DNA from: a virus
Taxonomy: Duplodnaviria; Caudoviricetes
IMG/VR virus record: IMGVR_UViG_3300015050_000977
Location: 1-58,530 of that record
Length of the DNA stretch: 58,530 nt
Direction: 5' to 3' (one strand)
Below the pieces are notes generated by a model. That model was not told the DNA's origin. It did not search any database and saw nothing but the letters and a program-made list of their open reading frames with translations. Shown here piece after piece: positions 797 through 56,612 of this stretch (positions within the stretch are counted from its first letter, which is position 1; each line of letters starts with the position of its first letter). The position numbers and the translations under genes are program-made.

Positions 797-984
797 TCCG
801 CAGCCTCGGCCTCGTCTGCGTGGCTCAGTCGGGCATGGCTCTCGTCATGGCCGCTCTCGGCATCGTAGATCGCTGGACGGTCTATCCCGCCTGCTACTTC
901 TCTCTCACCACATTCGTCGGCGTGTGGCTCATGCGAGATAAGCCGAACGATGCACATCAGCCAACTCGGAGGCCCGACGCGTGA
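652..984 (+). CDS. Cassette hypothetical membrane protein (110 aa, about 2 hydrophobic segments)
   Basis: ATGA-coupled start; hydrophobic stretches in the C-terminal half. Confidence 0.65.
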   Translation: MIEDIEHSPLPERKIMRAILVPADGSSAEATSEPQAHCARCCCGGLVRLRSLGLVCVAQSGMALVMAALGIVDRWTVYPACYFSLTTFVGVWLMRDKPNDAHQPTRRPDA

Positions 985-1049
985 ACACCACTGATCGAAG
1001 CGACCGCTCAGGAGCATCGCCCGAGTTGGCTGTGGGTGCCGGGTTCGGC
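942..1049 (-). repeat. attC-like site (GCCGAAC...GTTCGGC)
   Basis: Perfect inner stem CAGCCAACTCGG/CCGAGTTGGCTG. Confidence 0.9.
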
Positions 1050-1337
1050 AAGGGTGAAATCTCCGCGCCGCTGCCGCTAGAATCATCGGAGACAAGGTCG
1101 GCGAACCACGTAAAAAGCGTGATGGAACAACTGAACCGGGCGCAGGCATTCGCGGGGAGTCCAAAAGCGCGGAAACTATACCGCGACGCCTATGAGATAA
1201 TTAAGGCGGCTCAAATCTCCGGCGGTTTTGTCTTTCCGAAGTCCCATGATTGCCGATTTCACCGAGACCTAACGAACAAGTGCGGGGTTTGCGGATCTTT
1301 TCCGCCGAACGAAAAAGCTCAGACACGCTCGCCATGA
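981..1337 (+). CDS. Cassette hypothetical protein (118 aa, C-terminal Cys/His cluster HDC...CGVC)
   Basis: GTGA-coupled start in the attC loop. Confidence 0.7.
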   Translation: MNTTDRSDRSGASPELAVGAGFGKGEISAPLPLESSETRSANHVKSVMEQLNRAQAFAGSPKARKLYRDAYEIIKAAQISGGFVFPKSHDCRFHRDLTNKCGVCGSFPPNEKAQTRSP

Positions 1338-1419
1338 ATCACCCTCTGCAACCGCTCGTAGGCAAGACGCCCGAACAACCTGCCGCTGGCGAGCGTTGTT
1401 CTGTGGCGCTGGGTTCGGC
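1304..1419 (-). repeat. attC-like site (GCCGAAC...GTTCGGC)
   Basis: Minus strand reads GCCGAAC-CCAGC-GCCACAGA...TCTGAGC-TTTTTC-GTTCGGC, the canonical R''-5-L''(8)...L'(7)-6-R' spacing. Confidence 0.9.
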
Positions 1420-1684
1420 GTGGGCCGCGCTCTGGACGAGCAAGAACAAACTCGACGGCCTAAAGAGACATCTCATCTACGAGAACGGAGTGCCCGCGCT
1501 TTTCTCGAAGCGCCGCTTCGCCCGAAATTTCATCCGCGCTCAATACGGCTACATCGCGACGCGCGCCGATCTTCGCGCTGAACCGCATGGCTGGCGGCTA
1601 CCCGTAGCGGTCAAAGTCACGGTTACTCTTTCTTCGCCGAACCATATAATATCACATCCCCATGAGAATTCACGGCAACCTTGA
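1334..1684 (+). CDS. Cassette hypothetical protein (116 aa, MNHPLQP...)
   Basis: ATG at 1334 overlaps the upstream TGA; preferred over the track start at 1250. Confidence 0.75.
   Translation: MNHPLQPLVGKTPEQPAAGERCSVALGSAWAALWTSKNKLDGLKRHLIYENGVPALFSKRRFARNFIRAQYGYIATRADLRAEPHGWRLPVAVKVTVTLSSPNHIISHPHENSRQP
1636..1660 (-). other. attI-like simple recombination site (half-site with no partner arm)
   Basis: Minus strand reads GGGATGTGATAT-TATATG-GTTCGGC. It is AT-rich, its core matches the previous site, and I found no complementary arm downstream. Confidence 0.6.
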
Positions 1685-1979
1685 CCGAGCAATATCCAAT
1701 CTGCGTGCCGGTCGCGAAGTATCCCGCCAATGTCGCCGCGCCTTCCTCGGCCCACCGCTCCGCGCTCCAGATGCCGGGACTTTGCTCAAAACCATCCGCG
1801 TCACAGACCACGTAAAAAATATCAGCTACGCCATCACAATTCACCAAGGCAACCGCCGCAATGGCATTGAACCACGCCTGTTCGGACAATCGTTCGTCAA
1901 ATCGCGCTACTGCGGTTTTGATCTGCTGTTTCGCGAACTGCGCAAACGGTGGTCATTGCGGTGGCTGGTCCTAAACTAA
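1662..1979 (+). CDS. Hypothetical basic protein (105 aa)
   Basis: ORF directly after the array, co-directional with the operon. Confidence 0.65.
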   Translation: MRIHGNLDRAISNLRAGREVSRQCRRAFLGPPLRAPDAGTLLKTIRVTDHVKNISYAITIHQGNRRNGIEPRLFGQSFVKSRYCGFDLLFRELRKRWSLRWLVLN

Positions 1980-2096: not shown

Positions 2097-2342
2097 ATGA
2101 CCAAACCACCCATCACCGCCGCCGAACTAGACCCCGCATGGCCCGAAGCCGTGCGCTCCGCCACGCCCGCCGTCAAACTGCGCGCTGGCCACGGCCACAC
2201 GATTGAGGCGTGGTCCGAGGCGCGCAACAGGTATATGCCGCTCCAACTGCCCGGTGGCGGCATCGCGTTCACCACCGAGGCGGATCGCGACCTGGTGCTG
2301 GGGGCGATTATGGGGCTCAATATATTGCCTCCCGCTAAGTGA
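2097..2342 (+). CDS. Hypothetical protein (81 aa)
   Basis: ORF coupled (GTGA) to the helicase. Confidence 0.65.
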   Translation: MTKPPITAAELDPAWPEAVRSATPAVKLRAGHGHTIEAWSEARNRYMPLQLPGGGIAFTTEADRDLVLGAIMGLNILPPAK

Positions 2343-4072
2343 GCGCCCTCATCGACATTGACTGGGATGAGGCGCCCGTAGCGGTAGCAACGCCCCATCG
2401 CTTTGCGCTGCGCGGTAAACAGCCACAGTGGCTCGCAACGATCATCTCTGATTTTGCGACCAAATCGCGCCTACTTGTGGTAGCCCCAGGAGGCGTGGGC
2501 AAAACGACCCTCTTCGCCGCGCTCGCAGCCCACTACCACACGCTCGGCATCCGCACGCTGGTCTTGGAGAACCGCGACCGGCTCACGCGCCAGACTGCCG
2601 ACCGTATCCGCATTGAGACCGGCATCGAGGTGGACATTGAAATGGGCGACGAGCACGCCAGTCCGTTCGCGCCCATCGTGGTTGCTAGCGTGCAGACGCT
2701 GGGGCGTGTCAACCGCTTGACCGGCTTTTCGGATTCTCACTTTGGATTGATCGTCGCGGACGAATGCCACTTTTCGCTAGGGCCGCAATTCCAACGCGTC
2801 ATGTGCTATTTCCACTACGGCGCCCACAGCCTAGACCCGGACTGGAAGCGGCCCGAAGATGGCACCTACGAGGTCAAGGCTCGCTGCGCCGGATTCACAG
2901 CCACGCCAGACATCGGCGAGCGCAAGAACCTCGGTCAGTTCTTCCATCACCGCAGCGTCAATTACAGCTACCTAGAAGCCGTGCAGGACGGCTGGCTGGT
3001 CGGCCCGGTTCAGAAGAACATCCCGGTTCGCATCGACCTGTCCAAATACAAGGCCAAGTCCACACCCAACGGAAACGACTTCGCCGCGTCCGATTTGAGC
3101 GCGGCGCTCATCCCGATCATCGAGGAACTGGCCGAGCAAATCCTGATCCATGCCTCGGCCAAGAAGACCATCGCATTTCTGCCTAGCGTGGAGTGTGCCC
3201 GCATGATGACCGACGCTCTGTTGCGGCGCGGGATGCGAGCGATATTCGTGTCCGGCGAGTGTCTTGATGCGTCTGAGAAGACGGACGAGTTCGCCGCGCT
3301 CGGAGCAGGCTCGGTGTTGGTCAATTGCTGCCTCTACGTCTACGGCGTGGATTTCCCTGACGTGGACTGCATCGCGTGGTTCCGCGCTACCATTTCCAAG
3401 GCGTTCTACATCCAAGGAATCTACCGCGGCACTCGCGTATTACCCGGCATCCTGAATGGCCTAAAAACCGCAGAGGGACGTCGCGATGCCATCGCCTGCT
3501 CGCGCAAACCGTTCCTGACAATCCTTGACCCGCTGTTCGTGTCTGACCGCATTGACCTGCTAGATGCCTACGACCTGCTCACCGATGAGCCCGAGGTGAA
3601 GAAGGCCATGAAGGCGTCGGGTGAACTGAGCGTGGAGTCGGCGCAGAAGGCGGAGCGCGATTTTCTGAAGTCGCTAAAGAAGGAGGCGAAGAAGCATGAG
3701 CGGAAAGCGGCCCGCACGATTGACCCGCTCCAGTGGGCGGTATCGCTTGGCGACTCCATGATCAAGTCCTATGCGCCAACCGAGGCGTGGGAATCGCAGC
3801 CGGCGAGCGTCGGTCAACTAGACTTCATCCGCAATCAGGGCATGGAGATTGGCGGGATCACGTCGAAAGGACTGGCCTCGCGTATCATCAGCCGGCTGCG
3901 CGTGCGACAGGACAATAAATTGGCAACGCCTAAACAACTACGCCTCATGCACCAACTCGGCCTAGACGAGCAGACCTGCGCTACGCTGACCCAAGCCGAG
4001 GCCACCGCCACCATCGACCGCATCTTGCAGGGCAAGCGGGAGCGGGGTGGGCTGACGCCGGCCGTGGCGTAG
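2339..4072 (+). CDS. Superfamily 2 (DExH) DNA helicase
   Basis: Walker A PGGVGKT, DECH, FTAT, GVDFP and YIQGIYRGTR motifs. Confidence 0.92.
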   Translation: MSALIDIDWDEAPVAVATPHRFALRGKQPQWLATIISDFATKSRLLVVAPGGVGKTTLFAALAAHYHTLGIRTLVLENRDRLTRQTADRIRIETGIEVDIEMGDEHASPFAPIVVASVQTLGRVNRLTGFSDSHFGLIVADECHFSLGPQFQRVMCYFHYGAHSLDPDWKRPEDGTYEVKARCAGFTATPDIGERKNLGQFFHHRSVNYSYLEAVQDGWLVGPVQKNIPVRIDLSKYKAKSTPNGNDFAASDLSAALIPIIEELAEQILIHASAKKTIAFLPSVECARMMTDALLRRGMRAIFVSGECLDASEKTDEFAALGAGSVLVNCCLYVYGVDFPDVDCIAWFRATISKAFYIQGIYRGTRVLPGILNGLKTAEGRRDAIACSRKPFLTILDPLFVSDRIDLLDAYDLLTDEPEVKKAMKASGELSVESAQKAERDFLKSLKKEAKKHERKAARTIDPLQWAVSLGDSMIKSYAPTEAWESQPASVGQLDFIRNQGMEIGGITSKGLASRIISRLRVRQDNKLATPKQLRLMHQLGLDEQTCATLTQAEATATIDRILQGKRERGGLTPAVA

Positions 4073-5239: not shown

Positions 5240-8200
5240 TTCTTGTCGCGGCCGATCTCATTCATTATTCGCGCGTCTTGCAAGAGCAGGTAGGCGCGCT
5301 GCGGGGGTAGTTCGGCCAACCCTGCCGCAATGTCGTCACCGTTGCGGTTCAGCGCGTTCAGATAGCCGTCGTCCAGCAGCGCGGCGGAGGCTAGGTTGAA
5401 TCGCTTAGTGCGGATCATATTGATGCCTTGGCGCATCAGGCTTCCAAGCGAGCGGCCGGACTGGATGCTGCCAGATTGCCCGGTGCGCACGAACTCGGCA
5501 GCATTGACAACCTCGGGTGTCATCTTGGCCGAAATCATGGCCTCGCGGCTGGCGTCGTCCATCTTAGCCACGCCCATCGCAAACTTGCGCAACCTTTCAG
5601 CCTTTTCCGGGCCGATAGCAGCGGAGAGCTGGCTGAATCGGGTGTCCGTATCAGCGCCTGGAAGCGACTCAAAGAACGACCTTACTTTTGGCGTATCCAG
5701 ATTTACGATTTGACCCGGAACATTGCGCTCCGTGCGAATCATGCCCTGAAGTGCATTTGCAACCAACCGGCGCTCAACCATCTCAGCCAAGTCTGGCTTC
5801 TGGTCACGCAGCGCGTCCATGAACGAACGCGCCTCGGAGCGGCGCATGTTGGCTACGAGGTCCGTGACCGTGCCGGCGCCGTCGATCTTTTCGGCCTCGT
5901 TAGACAGCCGGTAGCCTCCCTTGCCTTTGAATACGCCCGTGAGCGGATTTTGCTCCGCCGCCTGCATTGCGGCCTGCGCAGCCTGAGCGTCAACGCCTGC
6001 GCGCTTGGCGAGCCCGTTGGCCTCCACGAAAGCCTCGCGAGCCTTTTGCATCAGCCCGGCCTCGCGCAGCGCCACGGCGTCATTGACGCGTTTCGTGAAC
6101 GCGACAGTGGCCATCGCTTTTGCAACCTGCGCAGGGGCGTCTTTTCCGCCCACGTTGAGCACCTGTTGAATCTGTGGCGACTCCATCACGGAGCGGATAG
6201 CGTCCGGCATCAGATCGTGCGGCTTGAACTCTTGCAGCGCCTTCGTCCAGCCCTTGATCGTGGGTGCGTCACCCATGCGGAACAGTTCGACCGGGAATGG
6301 GCTGTCTTTCTTGGCGGCGTAGCGCCCGACCAATTCACCCAGCTTGCGGTAGTCCACGCCGTAAGCATCGGTCGCTTTTTCGAGGAACGAATTGCGGACG
6401 GCGCTGCCCATGGTGGCCATGGCGGCATTCGCCACGTCCGGGTTCATCGGCTTGATCTGGTCAACGAAGGCTTTGAAGTTTTTGATTTCGTCCACATTGC
6501 CGGACGCCAACTTGTCAGCCATGCCTGCAACGGTGGAGTCGGCCACTTCGCCGCGTAGCAGCGCCCGGCCAAAGTCGGAGTCGCGCAGCTTGGACGTGTC
6601 TCTCCAGAACTGACGGAACTTCTGATACGGTTCCACCGCGTCGGGGAACAGGCGCCCGATTTCTTCAACGTGCGTGTCGGACATCGCGTGATACGTCTTG
6701 GCTGCAAGACGCTCCGCGTTGTTCATGTTGTTCGTGTCGATCTTGCCTTGGAAGCCATCGCTGATGGCGTCGCGCAGACGGCGGAAGTCATCGAGGGTTA
6801 GGAACTTTTCCTCCGGCGCGGCGACGGCCGATGCGGATTGCATAGGCTGGCCTGCTACAAGCTTACCGCCAACCGTTTTTATGCCCCCGGGGAACGCGGC
6901 ATTAAATTGAGCCGGGGTCATTTCGGTTCCGGCTAATTGCGCCTTGCGCGCCATCTGCTCCAGCGAAAGCTGCTTGGTCGCTGTTGCGTCGGCGACAGTT
7001 TTGCTTCCCCAATTCTTGATCGTCTCAAGGATGGACTTGCCTGCCACAAGCTCCGCGTCCGAGCCTAGCGCGGCCTTTGCGGCGTTGTAGAGCGCGTCCT
7101 GCCCGATGATAGCGGCATTGTCAGGAATGCCCGTAGCAGCCAGCATTTCGCCTGCCGCCTGCGACCGCGCGCCGAACAGCTTTTTGGTAATGTCCTGCAC
7201 AGCCTCCGCGTGCCCAGTCTGCGTGCCAATGGTGTCGGCGCCAACGGTCAGTGCAATACTGGCCTTGGCTTGGTCGGAGATGGCCCGCATGGTCTCGGCC
7301 TGCGCACCAGCAATAACATCGGCGCGCGTCTTAGGGTCGAGATTGGTCGCCGCCTTGGCTTTGGTCACCATCGCCTGCGCTTCCTCCATGCGCTGTGCCG
7401 CCATTTTATAGGCAGCATCAAGTTCATCCACCTTGCCAAGAATCGGCTGCAACTGCGCCGCAATCTGCTCGTTCTGCGGAGCATCGGTCGCCGTCGCAAA
7501 AATAGCCTTGGCCATCGGCGCACGAGCCGCGTCCTGTTTTGCGCGCATGGTCGGATCAATACTGACCACCTTCTGCTGCATCGCGCCGTAACGCTTCGGA
7601 AGCACGTCGCCCAGCATCGGGTCAGCCATGCCCAGTTCTTCCGCTGCCCGACGGCCCGCGTCGGCCTCAGCCTGGACCTTCTGCATGGATTGCAGCTTGC
7701 CGCCCACGCCGAGCGCGGCGGAACCAATGATCGCCGGAACGATGGCGTCCTTGAGCGAGGTTTTGTATTCGTCCCAATTGGGCGTAAGTGACTGCTCCTC
7801 GATGGATCGCTCCAGCGCATTGCCGACCGCAACGGTGGCACCGGCCGCGCCCGCGCCCTTGGCGATGTTGCCGACCGTCGATGCGCCGGGAAGCGGATTC
7901 GGCGCGCCCGAAAAGAACATCGTCTGCGCGAGCTTCGACAGCTTCGGCGTCTCGCCGTTGTTCACCGCATCCAAAAGATACGCGCCGCCGCCGACCATCG
8001 CGCGGGTCGCCATCGGGATTGCTCCAAAGCCAGGGACGGCCATCGGTGACGCGGCCATGCCGACGCGCCCCATCGTGACCATTTGCTTGTCGAGGCGATT
8101 AGCCATCTCGTCGGGCGTCCCAAATGGGCTCTTGAAAGCGGGTGGCGCATCTGAGCGCTGAACACTGGCAAGTGATGCGGAAGGGTCATGCGCGGGAGCC

Positions 8201-8334: not shown

Positions 8335-9762
8335 TTAGCGCGGACCGGAGCCTTGGCGTGGAGGATACTTATTTAGGATGGCGTCGAGCGACGACGTGGC
8401 CGGCGCAGCCTTTGGCGCCACCACAGGCGCCGCTGAGGCATTCGGCGTCCAACTGACATATTCAGGCGGAATCACCTCATCCGGGTCCAGCCCGCGCTTA
8501 TCGGCGATGGCCTTATACTGCTTCGCGTCGCGCATCATATTTTCGTGATGGCGCTTACTTGCGTCATCCAGCGTTTTCAAGAAGTCGGCGCGCATCTTTA
8601 GCGAAAGGGTTTCACCCGACGCAGCCTGATTATATTGCTGCCAGATGCGCTCAGGAATCGAGCCCGTGTTCTTGGCGTCCGCACGCTCACCTTCGCGCAC
8701 CGTGGAGCGCGGATCGTAAGCCTTCATCACCGAGTAGACGAACGCCATGTCGTCGGCCGGCGTGCCGCGAGCCGCGAGGTCTCTGGCCAGATTGTAGGCC
8801 GTCGAAACGATGGCGAAGTTCTTGGCCGAATCCTTGGCGCCAAACTCGTCGCGCAGCTTCTTGGTCTCGTCAAAGACCTGCGCCGAGTCCTTCTTGCCGG
8901 TCTTGAGCGCATCGGCCTCGGCTTTGGCTGCTGCGGCCTCGGCTTTGGCTGTTCCAACCTGCTGACCCATCTCGTTGCGCAAGCCCTGCACCTCAAGCCG
9001 CGACTGCGCCGCAAGCGCTGCACGTTCAGCCGCGCCAGCCCGCGTGCTGTCGGCCTGTTGAAGTGCGACCATCTGAGCGGGCGTCATGCGCACGCCTTGC
9101 GAGGCCAATTGACCGGCGCCAGTCTCCAAGAACCTGCGCGCAGCATCGGACACTTCCGGCCGCACCACGCCGCCACCGTTGAGATTGCCGCTGCGCCCCG
9201 CCAGCGAGTCCGCCCCGCCAAGAGCCATCGGACCATCTGGCGCGCGGCCAAACAGCGCGGATGGACCGCCCGTGGCCGCGGGCTGCATCGGTGTGCCAGC
9301 ATTAAGCCGCTGACCAAGCGCCGCCATCTGCTGCATCTTGGCGTTTGTGGCATCCTCCTCCGTCTGCTGACGCTGCGCCTGTGCCAATTGGAACTGCGCC
9401 TGTTGCATCTGCATCGCCCGCATCTCCGCCATCTGCTTGTCCTCCTTCGCCTTCGTGTAGGTGTCCGCAAACGTGCTCAAAAGCGCCGCGTCCCGCACGC
9501 CCACGGTGCCGTCCCTCTGGAGCTTCATAAACGCCTTCACCGCGTCGGAGGGCGCGTTCGGCGACGGCTCCTCGGGGTTGAGGAATTGCAGCAGATCAGG
9601 GTTGGCCTTCAGTGCTCCCTCAAACTTGCCGAGGGCCTGTGCGGCCATCGTCTTGTTCTGGGCATAGCTTTGCATCCCCTGCTGGATTGAGTTTCCGAGG
9701 TTGCTGATGCCTTGGGCGATGTATTCGCCGCTGCGGTCTTGGATTCCAGGTGAGTAGGCCAT
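8335..9762 (-). CDS. Internal virion / ejection protein (start MAYSPGIQ at 9762)
   Basis: Gln/Ala-rich helical protein; position in the module; ACTACCATG start context. Confidence 0.6.
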   Translation of the reverse strand: MAYSPGIQDRSGEYIAQGISNLGNSIQQGMQSYAQNKTMAAQALGKFEGALKANPDLLQFLNPEEPSPNAPSDAVKAFMKLQRDGTVGVRDAALLSTFADTYTKAKEDKQMAEMRAMQMQQAQFQLAQAQRQQTEEDATNAKMQQMAALGQRLNAGTPMQPAATGGPSALFGRAPDGPMALGGADSLAGRSGNLNGGGVVRPEVSDAARRFLETGAGQLASQGVRMTPAQMVALQQADSTRAGAAERAALAAQSRLEVQGLRNEMGQQVGTAKAEAAAAKAEADALKTGKKDSAQVFDETKKLRDEFGAKDSAKNFAIVSTAYNLARDLAARGTPADDMAFVYSVMKAYDPRSTVREGERADAKNTGSIPERIWQQYNQAASGETLSLKMRADFLKTLDDASKRHHENMMRDAKQYKAIADKRGLDPDEVIPPEYVSWTPNASAAPVVAPKAAPATSSLDAILNKYPPRQGSGPR

Positions 9763-20987: not shown

Positions 20988-22181
20988 TTATCGAGATTTG
21001 CGTAACTGTGAGCTTTTGAGAAGAAGCCCAACCGCATCATCCGAAGTAATTCCGCCCTTCGCCGACAATTTCGCTGACTCCGCTGCAATCTGCTGCCGTT
21101 CGGCTGAACCGATAGGCGCCCGTGCCGCTGCACCGCTGGCCGAGACGGCGGTTTGATCCGCTGCTGGCTTTGGCTTGACCACCGGGGCTGGCTTCTTGGC
21201 GGGAGCAGCCTTGGCCGCGTCCTCTGCCTCGACCGCCTTCGCGCCTTTGACCAGCACGCCCAGTATCCATTCCGCATTTGGCATCGCCATAAGGGCGGCA
21301 TACTGCGGGTTGCGACGGCCCTGTTCGGCCATCTGATACTCGGCGCTCTGCTTGTCGGTCAGAAACGGGAAGCGTTCGTGAGCCTGCTTGGTGATCTGCT
21401 GCTTGGCGGCGATGAACTGCGCGCGTTGGGGGATATGATCCTCCAGCGTGCGCCGGGCCTCGCGTAACTTGCGCTTCAGGTCCAGTTCAGTGAACAACGC
21501 CTCGCCGATCTTGTGAACGCGGATTTGCTTATCCTCGTCCTTGGGATCGGTCATCGTTTGCCACTGACCGGCGTCGTCCAGCACGTCCTCGATGTAGCGA
21601 GCGGCCTCCTTGGCGGTGTTCTGGATTTCGCCCAGCTTGGCGATGTCCATTACGTCGCCCAACGGCATGTTGGGTGTAGGGGCTACGACTACGGGAGCTT
21701 GCGGGGTGACGGGAGCGGCGACCTTGGCCTCAAGTTCGGCCAGTTTGGCGGCTTGTTCCGCCATCTTGGCCTCGATTGCCTTGGTTTTAGCCACTTCCTT
21801 GCCGATGCGCTTATTGAGCAGCTTTTGTTGCTCGGGAGTGAATGAAATTGTCTGAGAAGGAACAGAATCGGCCTCTTCCTCGGTTGCCTTGTCCTCGGCC
21901 TCTGTCATCTCGGCGGTGGGCGTGGCTTCTTCGGCGGGGGCGGTCTCTTCGGAAGCTGCTGGAGCTTCTGCTGCCGGAGTTTCGTCAAGGGTAAGGTCCG
22001 GGGCGATTACCTCGGGGGCATTATCTTCCGCAGCTTGGCGGGGCGGCTGTTTCGATGCTTTCTCGGCCGAAGCCATGAGGAGCACCGCTGCCTGACCCGT
22101 CGCGATATTGCCCGACCCTTTTACTGTCGCATCACCTGTTTTTGCGGCCGGCGAAGTGGCCTCGATATTTTCAGTTGGCAT
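20988..22181 (-). CDS. Capsid scaffolding protein
   Basis: Acidic disordered N-terminus, KRIGK coiled coil, directly upstream of the major capsid gene. Confidence 0.75.
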   Translation of the reverse strand: MPTENIEATSPAAKTGDATVKGSGNIATGQAAVLLMASAEKASKQPPRQAAEDNAPEVIAPDLTLDETPAAEAPAASEETAPAEEATPTAEMTEAEDKATEEEADSVPSQTISFTPEQQKLLNKRIGKEVAKTKAIEAKMAEQAAKLAELEAKVAAPVTPQAPVVVAPTPNMPLGDVMDIAKLGEIQNTAKEAARYIEDVLDDAGQWQTMTDPKDEDKQIRVHKIGEALFTELDLKRKLREARRTLEDHIPQRAQFIAAKQQITKQAHERFPFLTDKQSAEYQMAEQGRRNPQYAALMAMPNAEWILGVLVKGAKAVEAEDAAKAAPAKKPAPVVKPKPAADQTAVSASGAAARAPIGSAERQQIAAESAKLSAKGGITSDDAVGLLLKSSQLRKSR

Positions 22182-25689: not shown

Positions 25690-28422
25690 TTAATATACTC
25701 CGGTCCGACTGCCGTTATCATTCACGAAAGGCACGAACTCGCAATTGGCCTTGCGGAGGTAGCGGAGGCAGTTGCCCGCAACTAGCGGCCTGCGATTGCG
25801 GCGAACCAGCACTGTCTCGTTCGGCACCGAGACGCAGTAAACGCGGCCATCGTAATCACGCTGCTCAATCAGGAACTCTTTGTCGCAGTTCGTGATCGAC
25901 GCAACGCGCAGGCGCTTCTCGCCCATCATCATTAGCGGCATCGTAGACCTTACCGACCGGCCGCGAATTTCAGACTCCCAATCCATGCTGCGCACGTAGG
26001 TGCATCCATACGGTTTTCCGAGTTTTGAAAGTAGTTCGGTAACGTCGTCAATTAGGCGCGTGGATACGCTTGCATACTTGCGCTCTGTCTTGTCCTCGCC
26101 CGACATCCATCCATCGCCCAGCACCATCGCCTCCCACATCGCCTGAAGGCAGTGGCGTGGAAGCGCCATAACATCGCGCGGGATGTATCGCTCGCTCTGC
26201 GATCCGAGCGGCGAGACGATGGACCACAAATCCTTGGACGAGATACTGAAGCTCTTGCTGTAATACCTGAAGCAGAAATCAAGGCGCGTGAGTAACGCTG
26301 CGATACGGGCGTGCTTCTCGGCGTTGACCTCACTGCATTGCGAGATGTAAACGGAATACCCGCGACCCGGAATCTGGATTTTGCCGCCGTCCGTCCCGGT
26401 TGCTGAACCCTCAGCGACATACCAACCAATGAACTCAGCCCAGTCTTTCGCGGCCACGACCTTGCCTGTCCAAATCTCAATCATGCGCTCCGGCTCGTCG
26501 GCGATGCCGTTAGTTGTGATCGGGAACGTGTCCTGACGCTTGATGTCCTTGGCGAGCCTGATCTTCAATGGGGGGCGCTGCGGATAAACAAGCATCCGAT
26601 GATTTGGCGTCACGCAGAAGTTGAGCGCGTTCTGTTCGCACGCAATCATGGGGCCGGTGTAATGCCGGTCGTGATACTCAGTCGGAACCTGATACTCCAG
26701 CGCGCCGTCCTTCGCCATCGTGGCCACCGCCACGCCACGAGGTAGCGACGGGAACGGCACCCAGCCATCAGTCGTCAAGATTTCGGTCTCGGCGTCGTAG
26801 CAATCAATCGGGTCTTTCGTAGCCTCCGTCGCCCCCAATTTACCCGTATATTCCTGCAATGCGTAGATCAAGTTCTGGCACCTGTCGCTGACGTATAACC
26901 TAGGCCGGTTCAGTGCATCAATCGGCTGGTCCGTTTTGTAGGCCAGCAGGTTATTGATAAGTTGGATACCGTCCTCAATTTCACCCTTGTTTGCCTCCGA
27001 CGACGCGGCTGGAGCCGGGATAAATGTTAGCCCGGCGTCGTCCAGCTCACTGATGATGGTCGTAGCCCCGTCCTGTGACTGGCGCTCCGCGGCGCCCATG
27101 CGCGGGTCGATGATGCGTTCGTAAATGTTGCGGTCGCCGTCCGGGCCGCTCTCGGCGGTCGTGATGTGTTCGACGTAGGCTTTGATGCCGTGAATGCGCG
27201 GCGTTGTCGCCGGGCCGGGCTTGTTGCCGGGCAAGGCCCATTCCTCGTTCTCGGGTGACTCGCGGTAGACCCACCACGTATTCGCGGCGTCGATGGCGAC
27301 CCAGACCATGAACCATGCCTTGGAGCCGGCGGGGTCGAGCGCCATGTAGAACGTGACGGGATAGGGCACGTCTTGACCCTTGGCGTTCTTGCGGGTTTTG
27401 AGCCATGGGAGGTCTTCGTGTTTGACCACGTTGCCGCCGTCTTTGACGTATTCTTTGCTGAAGAGGGGGAAGGCGGAAGTCGTGGATTTCGTGGGGACTC
27501 CGAAGGCGCGGGCTAGGATTACTTCGCGGGATTCACTACCGTAGAGCTTAAGAAATTCGCGGTAGTCGGCGAATGGGTTGTCTTGCGTCCAGCAATATAT
27601 GATGCAGCACGATCCAACAGAAAGACTCTCTTGGAGGATCGGGAGATTTGCCTGAATCTTAGGGTGGTCGCAGTAGCGCGTCTGAAGCGTTTTTGTGCGT
27701 GCTAAAATTTTGGATACTAGATCGTTCCAGCCATCGACCACGGTGTAGGTCAGCAGCAGGCGTCCATGGTAAGTGCCGAGACGGCCCATGCGGAACGTCT
27801 CAAACAAATCGGTCGGGCATTTTTCGTCCATCCATGCGAAATGCGCCTTAACTCCTTCTATTATCTGTGAGTTAGAAATATACTGCTGATAATTATGAAA
27901 CTTGATTGAGCCACCGCGTCGATAGCCTTTAACGGGCGGCATGATGGCGATTCCGTCCGTAAATCCGTTCTTCTGGTTGTATTGCAGGCTGTGGGCGATG
28001 CCCTTCTTGGTTGGCATGTCCCTCAACCAACTCGGAAGCTCTTCGTAAATAAAACGCTGCTGGTCGGCAATCGAACGCTGCTCGTTGATGTGAAAATTGT
28101 AGACCTCGGCCTCGGGGATTTCGCAAGCGGCCCAGACGGACATACGGGCGCCGAGTTTCGTTTTGCCGCTTTGGTTCCCGCCAAGCAGGATCGTCACGTT
28201 ATACTTCTTCCAGCAATCCATGACCATTTCCCATGATGGAAGCGTCCATCCCCATCCAACCGGATTCTTAGCGCTCTCGGTCTCGATGAGCTGCCGACTG
28301 TGCATGTATTCCCGCAACCTCTCCTCGCTTAGCCCAGCAAGTTCTTCGGGCGTTAGCGGAGCGCGGTATGGGATTCCGAATCGAGGCTGGAACGTGTCGG
28401 CGTATTGAATCTTTTTAGCCAT
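25690..28422 (-). CDS. terL: Terminase large subunit containing an intein
   Basis: Walker A GGNQSGKT, Walker B AWMDE, nuclease LDP motif; the C-terminal KDPID|CLRY motif is split by the intein. Confidence 0.92.
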   Translation of the reverse strand: MAKKIQYADTFQPRFGIPYRAPLTPEELAGLSEERLREYMHSRQLIETESAKNPVGWGWTLPSWEMVMDCWKKYNVTILLGGNQSGKTKLGARMSVWAACEIPEAEVYNFHINEQRSIADQQRFIYEELPSWLRDMPTKKGIAHSLQYNQKNGFTDGIAIMPPVKGYRRGGSIKFHNYQQYISNSQIIEGVKAHFAWMDEKCPTDLFETFRMGRLGTYHGRLLLTYTVVDGWNDLVSKILARTKTLQTRYCDHPKIQANLPILQESLSVGSCCIIYCWTQDNPFADYREFLKLYGSESREVILARAFGVPTKSTTSAFPLFSKEYVKDGGNVVKHEDLPWLKTRKNAKGQDVPYPVTFYMALDPAGSKAWFMVWVAIDAANTWWVYRESPENEEWALPGNKPGPATTPRIHGIKAYVEHITTAESGPDGDRNIYERIIDPRMGAAERQSQDGATTIISELDDAGLTFIPAPAASSEANKGEIEDGIQLINNLLAYKTDQPIDALNRPRLYVSDRCQNLIYALQEYTGKLGATEATKDPIDCYDAETEILTTDGWVPFPSLPRGVAVATMAKDGALEYQVPTEYHDRHYTGPMIACEQNALNFCVTPNHRMLVYPQRPPLKIRLAKDIKRQDTFPITTNGIADEPERMIEIWTGKVVAAKDWAEFIGWYVAEGSATGTDGGKIQIPGRGYSVYISQCSEVNAEKHARIAALLTRLDFCFRYYSKSFSISSKDLWSIVSPLGSQSERYIPRDVMALPRHCLQAMWEAMVLGDGWMSGEDKTERKYASVSTRLIDDVTELLSKLGKPYGCTYVRSMDWESEIRGRSVRSTMPLMMMGEKRLRVASITNCDKEFLIEQRDYDGRVYCVSVPNETVLVRRNRRPLVAGNCLRYLRKANCEFVPFVNDNGSRTGVY
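25771..26802 (-). mobile_element. Intein (344 aa) with a LAGLIDADG-type homing endonuclease domain
   Basis: Begins CYDAETEILT, block B VTPNHRM, endonuclease helices FIGWYVAEG and AMVLGDG, ends VYCVSVP...AGN followed by Cys+1. Confidence 0.92.
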
Positions 28423-28989
28423 TTAGATGTGTTTCCAATGACGCTTCGTGATGGCGCGATAGATCGTATTTTCGTTAAGCCCAAATTTCTCTGCAATGAT
28501 CCGGTATGCGTATCCAGTCTCCTCGCGCATCTTTCTCATTTCCATGACGGTTTCGTTCGTCATCTTTGCTCCGTAATTCTTATCGCCGATATTTTTACGT
28601 AGAACCGCGTTTCGATGCAGCGAATTTTCCTGATGAGTCATCCACTCAAGATTATTTACCGAGTTGTCGTTTTTATTTCCATCCTTGTGGTTAACCTCTG
28701 CTTTTCCGTCCGGGTTTGGTATGAATGTTTCTGCTACAAGTCTAGATATCAGCGTCATGCGCTGGACCGAACCCCTGCACATCATAACAGCCCAATACCC
28801 CTTGTCGCTCACGCCCCCAGTGAGTATCTTGGATCGGTAGCGCCGTGCGCGGCCAAGCCCGTCGATAAGCGTTCTCGGGACGGACCTAATGCGACCTAAA
28901 TTACTCGCCTCATAAAGCCCCTCGTATCCGGCGACCTCTTTCCAGATTTCGCCTGGCAAATTCAGATTGTCGTATCCGGTCCAGCTCAT
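28423..28989 (-). CDS. NUMOD4-HNH homing endonuclease
   Basis: EIWKEVAGYEGLYEASNLGRIRS plus VNHKDGNKNDNSVNNLEW. Confidence 0.92.
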   Translation of the reverse strand: MSWTGYDNLNLPGEIWKEVAGYEGLYEASNLGRIRSVPRTLIDGLGRARRYRSKILTGGVSDKGYWAVMMCRGSVQRMTLISRLVAETFIPNPDGKAEVNHKDGNKNDNSVNNLEWMTHQENSLHRNAVLRKNIGDKNYGAKMTNETVMEMRKMREETGYAYRIIAEKFGLNENTIYRAITKRHWKHI

Positions 28990-30842: not shown

Positions 30843-31538
30843 ATGACCAAGCCATTCTCCATCCTCCACCCCAACCAAGCCGCGTGGCCCAAATCCTACG
30901 GGCTGCATCCGAATCACTGTCGGGATGTTTTGGAAGGCTCCTACAACGTGCCCTATGATCCCGCGACGCCGCCAACCGTAATCGACCTCGGGGCGAACGT
31001 CGGGGCGTTTACGCGCTGGGCGGTGGAGCGGTGGCCTCGATGCACTGTCCATGCTTACGAGCCGTGCCCGGCTAATTTCAAACTCCTTCAGGAGACGGTC
31101 AGTGACTTTGACCAAAATGACGAAGACATTGACGTGCATCTACACAACGTCGCCGTCGCAGGTCACGCCTGCCGCGCCACGTTGCAGGCCGGCGAGTTCA
31201 ACTGCGGCGAGTGGTCGCTGATGATGCCGCCTGTCGAGGGGCGCGAAAAGGTGGAGGTGGACGTGATAAGCGCATTGGAACTTCCGAAGGCCGACGTGCT
31301 AAAAATTGATACCGAGGGCTGTGAACTTTTAATTTTGGCTACGCTGGACTACGACAAGCGCCTGCCGGAATTTTCAGCGATCATGCTCGAAACTCACTCG
31401 GATGAGTATGTGCCGATTGTTAAGGCGAACCTTGCTCGCGCTGGCTTCACCCTAACCGGCGAGGCCCGCCCGCATCTGAACCGCGGCGAACTCAAGTTTG
31501 TGCGCACCGATCTGCTGCCTGCCGACTTTAAGCCATGA
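30843..31538 (+). CDS. FkbM-family SAM-dependent methyltransferase
   Basis: VIDLGANVG, AYEP and LKIDTEGCE motifs. Confidence 0.9.
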   Translation: MTKPFSILHPNQAAWPKSYGLHPNHCRDVLEGSYNVPYDPATPPTVIDLGANVGAFTRWAVERWPRCTVHAYEPCPANFKLLQETVSDFDQNDEDIDVHLHNVAVAGHACRATLQAGEFNCGEWSLMMPPVEGREKVEVDVISALELPKADVLKIDTEGCELLILATLDYDKRLPEFSAIMLETHSDEYVPIVKANLARAGFTLTGEARPHLNRGELKFVRTDLLPADFKP

Positions 31539-37068: not shown

Positions 37069-37383
37069 ATGGCTGGATTACAGATCATGCTTGCCGAGCT
37101 GGAGGCCCACCGCCTTGAGGTGGTGCTGGTGCCACTCAACCCCAACCGGCGCGGGTGGAATGAGGGCGGGATGAAACGGGTCTGCGCCGACGTTCCGCCA
37201 CGCTGGTATCGAGCCCTGTGCCGGGATTATCCGAGCAGTCGCGGTGTGCGGCGCGGGAAGCCGGATACGCGCATCCGCCGTGCTAATGTGCTGCGCGCCT
37301 TGGAGCGCCTTGTGGACGGGCGCGGCTACGCGGGCAAGTATCGTGAGGAGTTTTTGCGGGTGGCGGAGGGGCTTGCGAAATGA
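37069..37383 (+). CDS. Hypothetical basic protein (MAGLQIML)
   Basis: ATGA-coupled to the methyltransferase. Confidence 0.6.
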   Translation: MAGLQIMLAELEAHRLEVVLVPLNPNRRGWNEGGMKRVCADVPPRWYRALCRDYPSSRGVRRGKPDTRIRRANVLRALERLVDGRGYAGKYREEFLRVAEGLAK

Positions 37384-38462
37384 CCGCCTACTACAACGAA
37401 AACAACCCTGACTGCGTGGCGTGGCTGCGCGAACTGATTAAACAAAAACTGATTCCAGATGGCGTGGTCGATGACCGCAGCATTGTGGACGTAATGCCTG
37501 AAGACTTACATGGATTCACTCAAAAACATTTCTTCGCCGGAGTCGGCGGATGGGCCCTTGGATGCCGCCTCGCCGGATGGCCAGACAGCCGACCCGTTGA
37601 AACCGTCAGTTGCCCCTGCCAACCGCTTTCGTGCGCCGGCGCCCAACAAGGGGAACTCGACATCCGGCACCTGTGGCCGGAATACCATCGTATCAAGCGG
37701 CAGCTTGAGCCTTGCGAAACTTTTGGAGAGCAGGTTGCGAGCCCGCTTGGCATTGAGTGGTGCGACGGAATATCGCTTGATTTGGAAGAACTCGGTTACG
37801 ATGTCGCAGCGTTTGATTTGCCGGCTGCGAGCGTCGGCGCTCCGCATATCAGACAGCGACTCTACTGGATGGCCAACCCCGATCACGAACGATGCGCTCG
37901 GGTCAACCCACTGCTACGGAGCGAAGCAACCGGACGGTTCGCGGGCGATCTGCTTGAAACTTCCCGGCGCGGCGAAGCTGGTGGGTTGGCCGACGCCGGT
38001 TGCGAGGGACCACATGCCGGCGCATACGCCGGAGTATATCGCGGAGAAGAAGGCGCAGGGTCACGGCATGGCGAACTTGAACGATGTGGTTCAACTGGCC
38101 GGCTGGGCCACCCCCACGACCAGGGATCACAAGGACGGGGACTGCGATCTGTCGGTGACACCGGACAATGGTCTGCTTGGTCGCCAAGTCCTTCATTCGT
38201 CTCATGCGCCGACGGGAAAACGCGGCGTGTTGAACCCAGCGCATTCCCGCTGGTTGATGGGATACCCAGTCGAGTGGGACCGCTGCTCACCGCACTTCGC
38301 GGAGTGGGAAAAGGTGCAGTCAAAGCTGCACGACTTAATCGCATCGCCCGACTGCACGCCTACGGAAACGCCATCGTCCCTGAACTCGCCGCCCAGTTCA
38401 TCGGAAGCTACCTCGATCTTGGACTTGGAGGACTGACGGCGGTCATGGACATCGAAGATTAA
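37380..38462 (+). CDS. C5-cytosine DNA methyltransferase, alpha polypeptide (circularly arranged motifs I-VIII and X)
   Basis: HFFAGVGG, CPCQPLS, EQV, APHIRQRLYW and AYGNAIV motifs. Confidence 0.88.
   Translation: MTAYYNENNPDCVAWLRELIKQKLIPDGVVDDRSIVDVMPEDLHGFTQKHFFAGVGGWALGCRLAGWPDSRPVETVSCPCQPLSCAGAQQGELDIRHLWPEYHRIKRQLEPCETFGEQVASPLGIEWCDGISLDLEELGYDVAAFDLPAASVGAPHIRQRLYWMANPDHERCARVNPLLRSEATGRFAGDLLETSRRGEAGGLADAGCEGPHAGAYAGVYRGEEGAGSRHGELERCGSTGRLGHPHDQGSQGRGLRSVGDTGQWSAWSPSPSFVSCADGKTRRVEPSAFPLVDGIPSRVGPLLTALRGVGKGAVKAARLNRIARLHAYGNAIVPELAAQFIGSYLDLGLGGLTAVMDIED
37510..38436 (+). CDS. Nested alternative-frame methyltransferase beta polypeptide (TRD and motif IX)
   Basis: 308-codon open +1 frame with WPTP repeats and LNPAHSRWLMGYPVEW. 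Confidence 0.75.
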   Translation: MDSLKNISSPESADGPLDAASPDGQTADPLKPSVAPANRFRAPAPNKGNSTSGTCGRNTIVSSGSLSLAKLLESRLRARLALSGATEYRLIWKNSVTMSQRLICRLRASALRISDSDSTGWPTPITNDALGSTHCYGAKQPDGSRAICLKLPGAAKLVGWPTPVARDHMPAHTPEYIAEKKAQGHGMANLNDVVQLAGWATPTTRDHKDGDCDLSVTPDNGLLGRQVLHSSHAPTGKRGVLNPAHSRWLMGYPVEWDRCSPHFAEWEKVQSKLHDLIASPDCTPTETPSSLNSPPSSSEATSILDLED

Positions 38463-45940: not shown

Positions 45941-46426
45941 ATGAGCACACAGAAACGCAAGTTTGAACTATTCGCCCGGCTCGCACGCCTCGGCTTCACC
46001 TACGACGAATCGGCCGCACTGCGCCGTATTGAAATGACCCTTCAGCGCTGGGCCGAAGCCGAGTGCGGCAATGGCAATGACCACGGATCATGGGCCATTG
46101 AGCGCGACGAAACCAGCGGTAAGCCCTACATGGTTCATCACCACTACATGCACGGGCGCGGCAAGGACTACACGACACGGCGCCCCATTGCGGACCGCGA
46201 GGCGGGCGCGCTGCGCCGGCTGGCCGCAATTGTCAGCGCACGCAATGCGCGCGGAAACGCACACGATATTAACATGACCCCATACACGCCAAACAGCCCC
46301 ACGTTTGTCGTCCACTATCACCAAACAGACCCGCGCGGCTGTGCTCTCTACCTGCTCACGCGTGAGCAACTTGGCGCGGATGAAATCAGTTCAATCTACA
46401 CCCGCGGTCTCGCCGTTTGCGCTTAA
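45941..46426 (+). CDS. Early hypothetical protein (161 aa)
   Basis: LRRIEMTLQRWAEAECG...QTDPRGCALY. Confidence 0.7.
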   Translation: MSTQKRKFELFARLARLGFTYDESAALRRIEMTLQRWAEAECGNGNDHGSWAIERDETSGKPYMVHHHYMHGRGKDYTTRRPIADREAGALRRLAAIVSARNARGNAHDINMTPYTPNSPTFVVHYHQTDPRGCALYLLTREQLGADEISSIYTRGLAVCA

Positions 46427-48333: not shown

Positions 48334-48515
48334 AAACTGAAAACATCACCAAGGCGGCGCGCAGCATCGGCTTAGCCGTCAGCGAACTGCGGGCCGCGCT
48401 TAACGACGCCAACCGCGCCAATAACCAATTTGCTTGGCTCGTGCTGGAGCAGGCGCTTGGCGAGGCTGTGGTATTGCAGACAAAGATTATGCGCATCGAG
48501 GAGGCGGCAACATGA
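48330..48515 (+). CDS. Hypothetical protein
   Basis: Coupled ORF. Confidence 0.55.
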   Translation: MKTENITKAARSIGLAVSELRAALNDANRANNQFAWLVLEQALGEAVVLQTKIMRIEEAAT

Positions 48516-48947
48516 ATGTCCATTTTTCATCCGCCTCCGACGAGTGGGCCACGCCGCCCGACTTCTTCGCCAAGTGCGCCGAGGAGTTCGGTTCGTTTGA
48601 CTTGGACGTATGCGCATCTGCCGAAAACCACAAGGCGCCGCGCTTTTTCACCAAAGAGCACGACGGCCTTACGCAAGACTGGCGAGGGCGCGTCTGGATG
48701 AATCCGCCCTATGGTCGCACGATTGCGACATGGATGCGCAAAGCCTACGAGTCGGCACAGGCGGGTGCGCTCGTGGTCTGCCTCGTGCCGTCTCGCACAG
48801 ACACATCATGGTGGCACGACTACGCAGCCAAGGGCGAAGTGCGCTTCATTCGCGGGCGCCTTAAATTCGGGGGGGCATCACAACTCGGCACCGTTCCCGA
48901 GCGCACTCGTCATCTTTCACCCGCAAATCATGGAGGTTGAATCATGA
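48512..48947 (+). CDS. Phage N6-adenine DNA methyltransferase (Dam-like), frameshifted at a G7 run
   Basis: WATP, DLDVCAS, NPPY and PSRTDT motifs; the conserved NSAPFPS tail lies in another frame after 48869-48875. Confidence 0.85.
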
Positions 48948-50628: not shown

Positions 50629-51804
50629 ATGTCCGAAAATAACCAAATCGCCATCCGTCAGGAACCCTCCCTGTTCAACATCGCCACGCTCATCGAAGCG
50701 AACGATTTCAGTCTCCAAATGTCCAAGGCCAAGCTGATCCCGGCCCACCTCCAAGGCTCGCCGTCCGACTGCCTGCGCGTCGTGATGCAGGCCGCAAAGT
50801 GGGGCATGGACCCTTTCGCCGTTGCCGACAAAACCAGCGTAATCAGCGGCAAGCTGATGTATGAGGGCCAACTGGTCGCCGCCGTAATCAATACCCGCGC
50901 CAACCTGAGCAAGCGCCTGAGCTACACGTTCAGCGGAACCGGCGCCCAGCGCTCCCTCGTGGTCTCCGGCACGCTGCGCGGCGAGACGGAGCCGCTGACC
51001 ATTGACCTCAGCTATTCACAAGCCTGCGCCATTAACAAAAACGGCCAGATGCAGAAAAATCCCGATCAGCAAATGTGCTACATCGGCGCCCGCATCTGGG
51101 CTCGCCGGCACATGCCTGAACTAATGCTGGGCGTCACGAGCGCGGATGAAATTCCCGAGGACTTGCCCATGGAAAACGTGACCGGCACTGGTGACGCTCC
51201 CGCCACTGCGCCCGTCGCCGATCCGGTGCCCCAACGCCAGGCTCCGCCGCCGCGCGCCAAGAAGGGCGCCGCTGCCGTGGTTGAAAACAAAGCACCCGCA
51301 ATCGAGGTGCCGGCGACCGTGGTGCCGGAGCCTGCGCCTGATCCTGTGAAGCAAGCGGCGCCTGCGCCCGAGCCGGTAAAGGCTGCGCCCGTGGTTGCGC
51401 CAGAGCCCGCTGCTGCTGCGCCTGCCGCTGCTGCTGCCACGCCCCGCGTCTTCCTCAAGGCCGATGAAGAACTTACGGCCAACTGCACCATCGTAAAGTT
51501 TGAACCCTGCCGGATGTTGCGCGGTGGCGTGCAAAAGGCCAGTGTTGCTGCGACCGTCAAAGGTGACTTCAACGGCCAAATCTGGCACTTCGGTGGCGCC
51601 GACTCGCCGGACATCACGGCGGCACAGCCCACGATCACCATTCCCGAGGTGTGGAAGGTCGGTGCCAACGTGGTCATCAAACTGCGCGGCCGGCTGGTTA
51701 TCCCGAAGGGCGCGGACGGTAAGCCTGACCCGACGAAGCAGAGCATTAAGTCGGACGTGATCAGCATTGAGGCCGCGGCGGCTGACTTGGAGGTTGTGGA
51801 CTAA
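50629..51804 (+). CDS. recT: RecT-family ssDNA-annealing recombinase
   Basis: IPAHLQGSPSDC...WGMDPFAVA...YEGQLVAAVI...PDQQMCY...WARR...LLGV-like pattern. Confidence 0.85.
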   Translation: MSENNQIAIRQEPSLFNIATLIEANDFSLQMSKAKLIPAHLQGSPSDCLRVVMQAAKWGMDPFAVADKTSVISGKLMYEGQLVAAVINTRANLSKRLSYTFSGTGAQRSLVVSGTLRGETEPLTIDLSYSQACAINKNGQMQKNPDQQMCYIGARIWARRHMPELMLGVTSADEIPEDLPMENVTGTGDAPATAPVADPVPQRQAPPPRAKKGAAAVVENKAPAIEVPATVVPEPAPDPVKQAAPAPEPVKAAPVVAPEPAAAAPAAAAATPRVFLKADEELTANCTIVKFEPCRMLRGGVQKASVAATVKGDFNGQIWHFGGADSPDITAAQPTITIPEVWKVGANVVIKLRGRLVIPKGADGKPDPTKQSIKSDVISIEAAAADLEVVD

Positions 51805-55164: not shown

Positions 55165-55635
55165 ATGCCCCGCTACACCACCGAGAGAGAATTGGCCATC
55201 GCACGCCGTAGCATGGGCGAGCCCAACGTCGTGATCCCGCCCGCGCCAAAGAAGCGCAAGAACGAGGAAAGCGCCGCCCAGTGCGAAGTCATCAAGTGGT
55301 GGGCGACTGCGTGCAAGGCTTATGACATTCCTGAAATTCTGCTGTTCAGCATCCCGAACGGAGGCCGGCGCGATCCACTGGCCATGATTTTTCTCAAACG
55401 AGAGGGGCTGCGCAATGGCGTTCCCGATTTGTTTCTGAGCGTCCCGCGCGGACACTGGCATGGTCTTTACGTCGAAATGAAGACAGCGACGGGACGCGTC
55501 AGGGATGAGCAGCATGAATTTATTGAGTCTGCGCGCGTGAATAACTACGTCGCATTTGTGTGCCGCAGCGCAGAGGACGCGAAGGCCATTATTGAACGGT
55601 ATCTAACTAATCCAAGCCAACTGCATTCGGCCTAA
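55165..55635 (+). CDS. VRR-NUC domain nuclease
   Basis: IPNGG, GVPDL and YVEMK motifs. Confidence 0.9.
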   Translation: MPRYTTERELAIARRSMGEPNVVIPPAPKKRKNEESAAQCEVIKWWATACKAYDIPEILLFSIPNGGRRDPLAMIFLKREGLRNGVPDLFLSVPRGHWHGLYVEMKTATGRVRDEQHEFIESARVNNYVAFVCRSAEDAKAIIERYLTNPSQLHSA

Positions 55636-55729
55636 CATCAAGACCCGACAACCCAGCCCCGAATACTACGGCGGTCACTTCAAGCCCTGCCAAATCTGCG
55701 GGGATAGCGGCTGGATAGAGGCTCAACCT

Positions 55730-56089
55730 ATGAACCCGAAAAAGACCGAAACGCTCACCCTCGCCGACGCAATGGATGCGCTCGCACGCGACATCCAATC
55801 TGGCGACGGGATCGCCAACGCAGCTATCGCGGAAGCGGCCGACCGCCTGCGCGAAACGCTAAAGGAAAACAATCGCCTCGACGGACTAATGGCGCAGCGT
55901 GACGAGCGAATCGTTGCGCTCCTACAAGAAGTGGACGAGCGCCGCCGCGACGCACAGAAAGACGCGGCGCTCGTGGGGCGGCTTCGCCGGGCGCTGGCAG
56001 ATGCGATAACCACCTACGACCCGACGCGGAAAGAGACTCTCGTGACTGCCGAGCGGCAAGAAGCGTGGGCCGCGGCATTGGCGTCATGA
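55730..56089 (+). CDS. Hypothetical coiled-coil protein
   Basis: Last fixed gene before the array. Confidence 0.7.
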   Translation: MNPKKTETLTLADAMDALARDIQSGDGIANAAIAEAADRLRETLKENNRLDGLMAQRDERIVALLQEVDERRRDAQKDAALVGRLRRALADAITTYDPTRKETLVTAERQEAWAAALAS

Positions 56090-56604: not shown

Positions 56605-56612
56605 CTCTTTTT

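Follow-up and report, generated by a model that had tools for sequence, protein, structure and literature searches.

A probable attI-like site at the end of an integrase-less attC cassette array in a phage genome

The segment from 1636 to about 1672 of the window (by which we mean the whole stretch of DNA analyzed, 58,530 nucleotides of the IMG/VR record IMGVR_UViG_3300015050_000977) is probably an attI-like recombination site that belongs to a cassette array borne by an integrase-less phage. The array-end observation itself holds true and goes far beyond what chance would produce, and the comparison with related and unrelated phages supports the attI-like reading. On the evidence of sequence, the case is to be classed as a phage-borne CALIN that is equipped with a dedicated array-end site and with phage-adapted cassettes.

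The window as a whole represents a complete phage genome (58.4 kb; the IMG/VR record has direct terminal repeats and is rated complete; the 123 bases at the window start are identical to the 123 bases at its end). Structural genes, including those of an SU10-type capsid protein and the large terminase, are located on the minus strand (4.1-30.5 kb); the replication and recombination genes (DnaB, RecT, exonuclease, DUF2800, VRR-NUC and ResIII helicase) are located on the plus strand and extend from 30.6 kb across the origin to 4.07 kb. About twelve small plus-strand ORFs are situated between the VRR-NUC and the helicase gene (see Table 1). A six-frame search of the phage genome for tyrosine recombinases (PF00589) gave 0 matches, with the positive control matched in 14 of 14 genomes, and no integrase was found among the 63 window ORFs scanned with Pfam; an intI gene beside the array, as in a complete integron, is thus missing from the window. 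Blastn revealed no close kin among isolated phages, all matches of the window helicase were below 60% identity, and an exact-peptide scan of viral contigs for relatives of the window returned none.

The small ORFs share a 25-nt motif (GCGTTGGCTNTGG and, separated by 3-5 nt, CTGGTTCGGC) that is positioned 44-131 nt past the ORF start, while a complementary arm opening with an RYYYAAC box is present at the end of each upstream ORF. Together, these arms delimit eleven proposed attCs from 56094 to 1419 (wrapping the origin), the canonical orientation of which corresponds to the minus strand. The window contains 27 copies of the heptamer GCCGAAC versus 15.6 expected; ten of them fall inside the 4.2-kb array, on alternating strands. 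On the minus strand, the R'' boxes read GCCGAAC and variants thereof and the R' boxes GTTCGGC, GTTAGGC or GTTGGGC, i.e. the R boxes are inverted as in attC sites; position 4 of the R box is often C instead of R, likewise in the attCs of the host. The flanks of the paired boxes (L boxes) covary between the elements, and in the folds of most elements both box pairs are closed; those of 942-1049 and 56795-56892 display the paired R boxes, bulged spacers and paired L boxes of the attC architecture, and in GTTGG one T is bulged or wobble-paired. A covariance model (R1) built exclusively from 16 host attCs and applied to the entire window without filters recovered 3 of the 11 proposed attCs at E≤1e-5 (27.6-34.4 bits). 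The other eight have long loops (130-199 nt) and for this reason gave at best partial matches of 11-12 bits; they are probable attCs by virtue of their arms and folds. At least two attCs in a row with no intI nearby, the arrangement that defines a CALIN, are accordingly present.

Table 1. Coordinates of the array elements, the array-end site and the flanking genes in the window.
Feature	Position	Strand	Remarks
RecT gene	50629-51804		
VRR-NUC nuclease gene, conserved left flank	55165-55635	+	Pfam PF08774, E 8e-11; 77% identity in L160
R-box-like GCCTAAC with VRR-NUC stop codon	55630-55636	-	similarity to L160 ends here
attC E1	56094-56223	-	arms pair; partial match 11.5 bits; outer R box GCCCAAC at 56094-56100
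probable attC E2, long loop	56410-56608	-	L boxes pair; partial match 12.3 bits; MFE leaves R boxes unclosed
attC E2b	56795-56892	-	best match of host-attC model: 34.4 bits, E 8e-8; ssDNA fold z -2.6
probable attC E3, long loop	57103-57291	-	R box is GCCTAAC
probable attC E4, long loop	57435-57627	-	arms and fold
probable attC E5	57948-58080	-	partial model match 11.1 bits
probable attC E6	58268-58398	-	arms and fold; loop holds start codon of ORF 58320
probable attC E7, long loop	209-400	-	arms and fold
probable attC E8, long loop	610-796	-	arms; MFE closes R and L boxes; model score not significant
attC E9	942-1049	-	model 27.6 bits, E 1e-5; ssDNA fold z -3.5, R and L boxes paired
attC E10	1304-1419	-	host-attC model 33.7 bits, E 1.4e-7
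orphan R box	1636-1642	-	GTTCGGC on minus strand (canonical), GCCGAAC on plus strand
conserved attI-like flank	1643-1672	-	plus strand in relatives: C-MATRTRWTATCC...TCTCATGAGAATTT; overlaps start of ORF 1662
gene of conserved 105-aa protein	1662-1979	+	adjoins the site, with transcription leading away from the array; the place of intI in an integron
ResIII/DEAD helicase gene	2339-4072	+	directly 3' of VRR-NUC in three relatives

ORFs traverse the motif of the 3' arm in at least three frames, and its boxes stand 10 to 13 nt apart; for both reasons, the repeats constitute a nucleic-acid element, and a protein motif was ruled out. A known RNA family was likewise rejected (in 4.5 kb of array sequence, Rfam with an E-value threshold returned two snoRNA matches, both due to chance), and an mRNA hairpin for translational coupling or RNase processing, a sigma-54 or ECF promoter and a tRNA-like element, all considered by eye, were dropped on finding integron arrays of the host. 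Indeed, a pattern scan for the motif in one genome per prokaryote species yielded 90 stretches, about half of which belong to Opitutaceae or other Verrucomicrobia, with up to 15 motif copies per 8 kb in the contigs of these groups. An integron integrase above the TIGR02249 cut-off is encoded in 4 of 5 array-bearing genomes, the first attC follows within approximately 1 kb of intI in 3 of 5 intI loci in a divergent layout as in the classical integron, and intI is present in 37 of the 81 genomes sampled from the host family. The host attCs are mostly 98-99 nt long (R'', spacer, L'', stem-loop, L', spacer, R') and exhibit compensatory changes in 14 of 23 stem pairs. By sequence and fold, the repeats of the window are to be regarded as true integron attC sites of the same family as those of the Opitutaceae chromosomal arrays, and this common attC family assigns the uncultured phage to an Opitutaceae host. 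The host-attC model also gave 35 matches in other phage contigs that carry the motif; attCs 942-1049 and 1304-1419 were each seen alone with other flanks in contigs of another metagenome. Loop and arm of E5 share 94% identity with an attC of another phage contig and 84% with a host attC (57985-58080 versus host locus L075, loop included); the phage copy contains an additional A-rich stretch with the ATG of ORF 58002, which suggests that this start codon was added on the phage side to an attC of the host type. No credible homologues of the window cassette proteins were found in the 90 host loci.

At its right end, the array terminates with an orphan R box, at which the conserved flank meets the first cassette. 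The AT-rich sequence CATATAATATCAC follows directly after GCCGAAC, and the ATG of the next ORF is positioned at 1662; on the minus strand the order is conserved flank, G/TT CGGC of the R box, first cassette, which corresponds to the layout of attI. The first-pass annotation had described this last core as one with an AT-rich L-like box and without partner arm, and both analyses that bear on the missing arm agree with it: the host-attC model (filters off) gave no match overlapping 1636-2100 at E≤10, and the ssDNA fold of 1630-1720 equals that of shuffles (z -0.5, versus z -3.5 and -2.6 for the attCs 942-1049 and 56795-56892). The site thus resembles an attI in being double-stranded, in having its R box where the first cassette is joined, and in lacking an attC-type arm, as well as in the occurrence of different first cassettes at one junction (11 contigs, 11 different upstream sequences). 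An adjoining cognate integrase gene with L box and direct repeats is missing, and neither an L box nor direct-repeat integrase-binding sites were identified at the array-end site. The G/TT at 1640-1642 (minus strand) also corresponds to the G/WT core in ordinary double-stranded DNA that characterizes attG sites. The start codon of gene 1662 is covered in most relatives by the perfect 10-bp palindrome TCTCATGAGA, for which the window has CCCCATGAGA (1653-1672), and a TATAAT is found at 1646-1651; judged by sequence, both may be binding or promoter elements within the site. A scan of 1200-2400 for promoters and terminators yielded none, including no sigma-70-like consensus promoter.

The comparison was extended to ten further contigs that encode gene 1662 (n=11 with the window). 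In all eleven, similarity starts at AAC and proceeds rightwards only, the upstream sequences being unrelated; the AAC is invariant, and the preceding four bases vary. The mean column conservation is 0.79 over the approximately 20 bases after AAC versus 0.48 (background) over the 26 bases upstream. According to BLAST, similarity to six relatives begins at 1626-1640, and in the contig of one relative at 1629. Matches to the attC model were detected upstream of the site in 8 of the 9 relatives searched, all on the minus strand and with a maximum of six (L170); L168 is devoid of a match, but just 610 nt are available upstream of its site. The closest relative, L160, shares 96% amino-acid identity in RecT and 93% in the product of gene 1662, and its array is wholly different (2.8 kb, about five attCs). 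No cassette common to any two arrays was found at 1e-8, and no shared cassette at different positions. The sequencing runs searched for the window stretch did not contain it (best share 0.07), and recombination joints were absent from the contigs of 4 runs.

The array-end motif is not restricted to phages that possess gene 1662. A weight matrix was derived from the 12 bases after AAC; in a leave-out version that omits the window and its two nearest relatives, position 1642 ranks 1st of 1705 AAC sites in the window, with a score of 16.2 versus 8.8 for the next. When the matrix of the gene-1662 type was applied to three complete phages that have almost no proteins in common with the window and differ in the genes flanking the site, the array-terminal site ranked 1st of 952 (G005), 1892 (G004) and 2121 (G001) AAC sites; in G001, the site at the array end had been unnoticed before the matrix test. 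In G004 and G005, the first 12 nt of the motif precede a non-homologous gene (hhalign probability 1% versus the 105-aa protein), and in G001 about 31 nt of the motif are kept and the ORF is reduced to three codons. With a different gene in G004 and G005 and a gene remnant in G001, the motif therefore travels with attC arrays and not with one gene.

The relationship to the attI sites of the host lies in position more than in sequence. Like the Opitutaceae attI (consensus GCNAATAACACT/GTTNGGC, 16 intI loci), the phage site has a conserved flank followed by the G/TT of the R box and the first cassette, an AT-rich flank, no hairpin partner, an adjoining gene transcribed away from the array, variable cassettes beyond, and a partial sequence likeness. 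It differs in sequence, in the absence of an integrase gene, in having the 105-aa protein as neighbor, and in its placement at the transcription-distal end with the cassette ORFs running towards the site. With the matrix of the phage site, the host attI cores ranked third or better in 12 of 17 intI loci, each with 61-114 AAC sites; this likeness may in part reflect shared AT-richness in GC-rich DNA. In the reverse direction, the window site scored negatively with the host-attI matrix and came 101st among 1705 GTT sites. This rank and blastn-short against the intI loci (one 16-nt match, E 0.85) led to the rejection of a copied host attI. The attI proposed by the first-pass annotation is hence retained as regards position and recurrent junction (11 contigs, three unrelated phages), and given up as regards a copy of the host sequence; judged from these comparisons, the site is attI-like in position and behavior and not a member of the host attI family.

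At the opposite end of the array, the earlier annotation does not agree with the present results. It had taken the core GCCCAAC at 56094 for the first one and stated that it matches no cassette; instead, it belongs, as outer R box, to a complete attC with paired arms (56094-56223), and comparison with L160 places the left limit of the variable region 460 bases further left, at GCCTAAC 55630-55636. ORF 55730-56089 is consequently part of the variable region, because the similarity to L160 stops at the VRR-NUC stop codon. A decayed attC at this boundary (55626-55722) was rejected, as the sequence is unfoldable (z +0.38) and has no model match. In L158, L159 and G004, the VRR-NUC gene abuts the helicase gene without such a locus. 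Joining 56099 to 1642 does yield the peptide that had been put forward, in a frame the ATG of which (56086) overlaps the TGA of ORF 55730-56089 and the TGA of which (1682-1684) lies inside ORF 1662-1979; its interpretation as a reconstructed empty locus with a linker mini-ORF is, however, unsupported, because the left boundary is at 55630-55636 and no relative with an empty site carrying this junction was found among 10 metagenome or viral loci.

Since the canonical attC top strand corresponds to the minus strand of the window, the plus-strand genes of the phage are inverted relative to their attCs. These plus-strand ORFs are real genes according to their GC3 pattern, which is like that of the known genes of the phage and unlike that of the minus-strand ORFs; in addition, ORF 56147, which begins just after an attC arm, has a PHROG match, and the body of ORF 58320 has a protein homologue in phage G001. 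Most cassette start codons are located inside attC loops and often overlap the previous stop codon. All ORFs of the window that cross an R box (12 of 12) read AAC as in-frame Asn, followed by a tail of 1-18 residues and a stop codon; among the corresponding ORFs of the relatives, 13 of 18 are in the Asn phase, and another 3 have the TAA of CTAAC as their stop codon. The stop codon of VRR-NUC is likewise the TAA of GCCTAAC. As AAC is in frame in all of them, any neighbor supplies a short in-frame tail with a stop codon, and the site does so for the last cassette; the Asn phase would thereby keep the ORFs translatable whatever cassette, or the site itself, comes next. ORF 56474-56794 starts in the loop of E2, has an atypical GC3 of 0.45 and overlaps a better ORF (56613-56858) that starts 5 nt past the attC; it is probably not a gene, and hence not every loop ATG is used.

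In the proposed mechanism, a host integron integrase would act during infection; the enzyme is assumed to be that of the host because the phage encodes no tyrosine recombinase. The folded bottom strands of the attCs (phage plus strand) would recombine with the site, with the result that cassettes are inserted or deleted next to gene 1662, i.e. at the transcription-distal array end. The cassettes appear to be phage-adapted, with the ORF on the attC bottom strand and most starts inside the attC loop. A wider reading is more tentative, and we would rate it somewhat below an even chance: a phage-adapted integron without integrase, in which an attI-like site of approximately 30 nt at the array ends of at least four unrelated Opitutaceae-phage lineages would enable the phages to acquire, lose and rearrange a gene pool of their own by means of the host IntI. 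If so, the cassettes would be small early-gene cassettes, possibly including counter-defence genes, and every ORF would traverse the crossover point between bases 2 and 3 of the Asn codon, making any order translatable.

Among the alternatives, exchange by homology is the one to be considered most seriously, albeit still as an unlikely one. According to this explanation, the site is the fixed edge of a hypervariable region, and the arrays are swapped by homologous recombination between co-infecting phages, with RecT and exonuclease as enzymes and the conserved flanks plus the attC arms as homology, no site-specific reaction taking place at 1636-1642. Indeed, RecT and an exonuclease are encoded and an integrase is not, the attC pieces of 30-80 nt that are common to phages could serve as homology, and the separate occurrence of attCs 942-1049 and 1304-1419 with other flanks would be equally expected. 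However, homology exchange leaves unexplained that conservation is limited at the same AAC in 11 of 11 relatives and that the 12-nt motif is top genome-wide at the array ends of three phages with different flanking genes; furthermore, at least ten different first cassettes abut the site, each of which requires an event at that very point.

The site could also represent a truncated attC, i.e. an R'-side half whose other arm was lost and which has no function of its own; such half-sites are expected at array ends after deletions, and ATC(A/C) is indeed found 8-9 nt past the R box, at the spacing where the 5' arms of attCs carry ATCAGCC or ATGAGCC. A decayed partner arm downstream in relatives, named by the first-pass annotation as the finding that would speak for truncation, was sought; neither a partner arm nor a match of the attC model was detected downstream of the site in the window or in any relative, where the region is instead occupied by a conserved protein gene. 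The AT-rich flank, conserved in 11 relatives and recurrent in 3 unrelated phages, is moreover unlike a decaying remnant, which makes truncation a rather improbable origin. To a similarly low degree, it is conceivable that the 20-30 conserved bases are the promoter, operator or translation start of gene 1662 and that deeper insertions would kill the gene. The TATAAT, the palindrome over the start codon and the continuation of conservation into the ORF agree with this assumption, in contrast to the missing sigma-70-like promoter, to the whole motif in G001 despite an ORF of three codons, and to the retention of the first 12 nt before a non-homologous gene in G004 and G005. Integron attI regions also overlap promoters, and a promoter role would be compatible with that of an attI.

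Full-text literature searches for integron parts in phages retrieved a single paper. Qi et al. 2023 (PMC9892861) report 17 phage CALINs without intI that comprise as few as two attCs, with GTTRRRY motifs at the array boundaries and methyltransferase cassettes; phage attCs recombined with attI1 under IntI1, and off-target or illegitimate recombination was suggested as CALIN origin. A conserved array-end site, complete cassette turnover, inverted ORFs with loop starts and a codon-phase rule, which distinguish the present array, are not described in the text considered. Cassette insertion outside the integron at double-stranded attG sites with a G/WT core has been reported by Loot et al. (bioRxiv 10.1101/2022.09.11.507474); according to the preprint, nearby promoters drive the expression of such cassettes, which form isolated attC clusters, and attG sites are numerous and loosely defined (3-nt core, 18-nt minimum). 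Unlike attG as portrayed there, the phage site consists of one specific motif of approximately 12-30 nt that is reused across lineages and is always the array end, which is attI-like. The PeSL cassettes of T4-type phages, as reported (PMC2839356, PMC4122927), are similar in that a repeated structured motif borders small accessory genes, which are shuffled between related phages in hyperplastic regions; in contrast to PeSLs (promoter-terminator motifs exchanged by homology), the repeats of the present phage are integron attCs shared with host integrons.

Integrons are seen as bacterial devices, and attC clusters of phages have so far been reported as small, probably accidental gains. Here, a phage lineage possesses a dedicated, sequence-specific array end, its close relatives replace every cassette, and the cassettes have a coding layout that suits the recombination site. 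Provided that the host integrase acts on the site, phages would use the integron machinery of the host as a gene-shuffling service, and a two-way road between the accessory genes of phages and bacterial cassette pools would result.

The 105-aa protein encoded next to the site could be an accessory factor for recombination. Its family comprises 29 metagenomic homologues (59-93% identity) and has no Pfam or PHROG assignment; the AF2 model has a mean pLDDT of 77.9 and gave no Foldseek match in the PDB at E≤0.001, with a best Z of 4.2 in the VIA-align wide search. In L166 (2584-5485), the gene, the site and the array are located upstream of VRR-NUC, unlike in the window; site and gene therefore form a module that changes its place with respect to the replication genes.

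Some further observations concern the other attC-bearing phages. G001 contains two separate attC arrays on opposite strands, both of which end in the motif (ranks 1 and 3 of 2121; L020, approximately 995 on the minus strand, and L019/G001 21990-22030), and at 21996 the motif is followed by the three-codon remnant of the start of gene 1662. One array cassette of G005 (L016, approximately 5500-5660, minus strand; 8440-8980 in the orientation of G005) resembles by eye the N-terminus of a C-5 cytosine methyltransferase. A 161-aa protein without family match (45941-46426) is the sole protein common to the window, G004 and G001 (approximately 47% identity), i.e. to three of four otherwise unrelated attC-bearing phages. 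Outside the array, the window encodes three DNA methyltransferase-type genes (30843-31538, 37380-38462 and 48434-48940; FkbM-type, C-5 cytosine and Dam-like). The large terminase ORF (25690-28989 region) has a length of 910 aa and may contain an intein or an inserted homing endonuclease, to judge from a weak match to LAGLIDADG around residues 760-803; the gene directly after it (28423-28989) encodes an HNH/NUMOD4 endonuclease.
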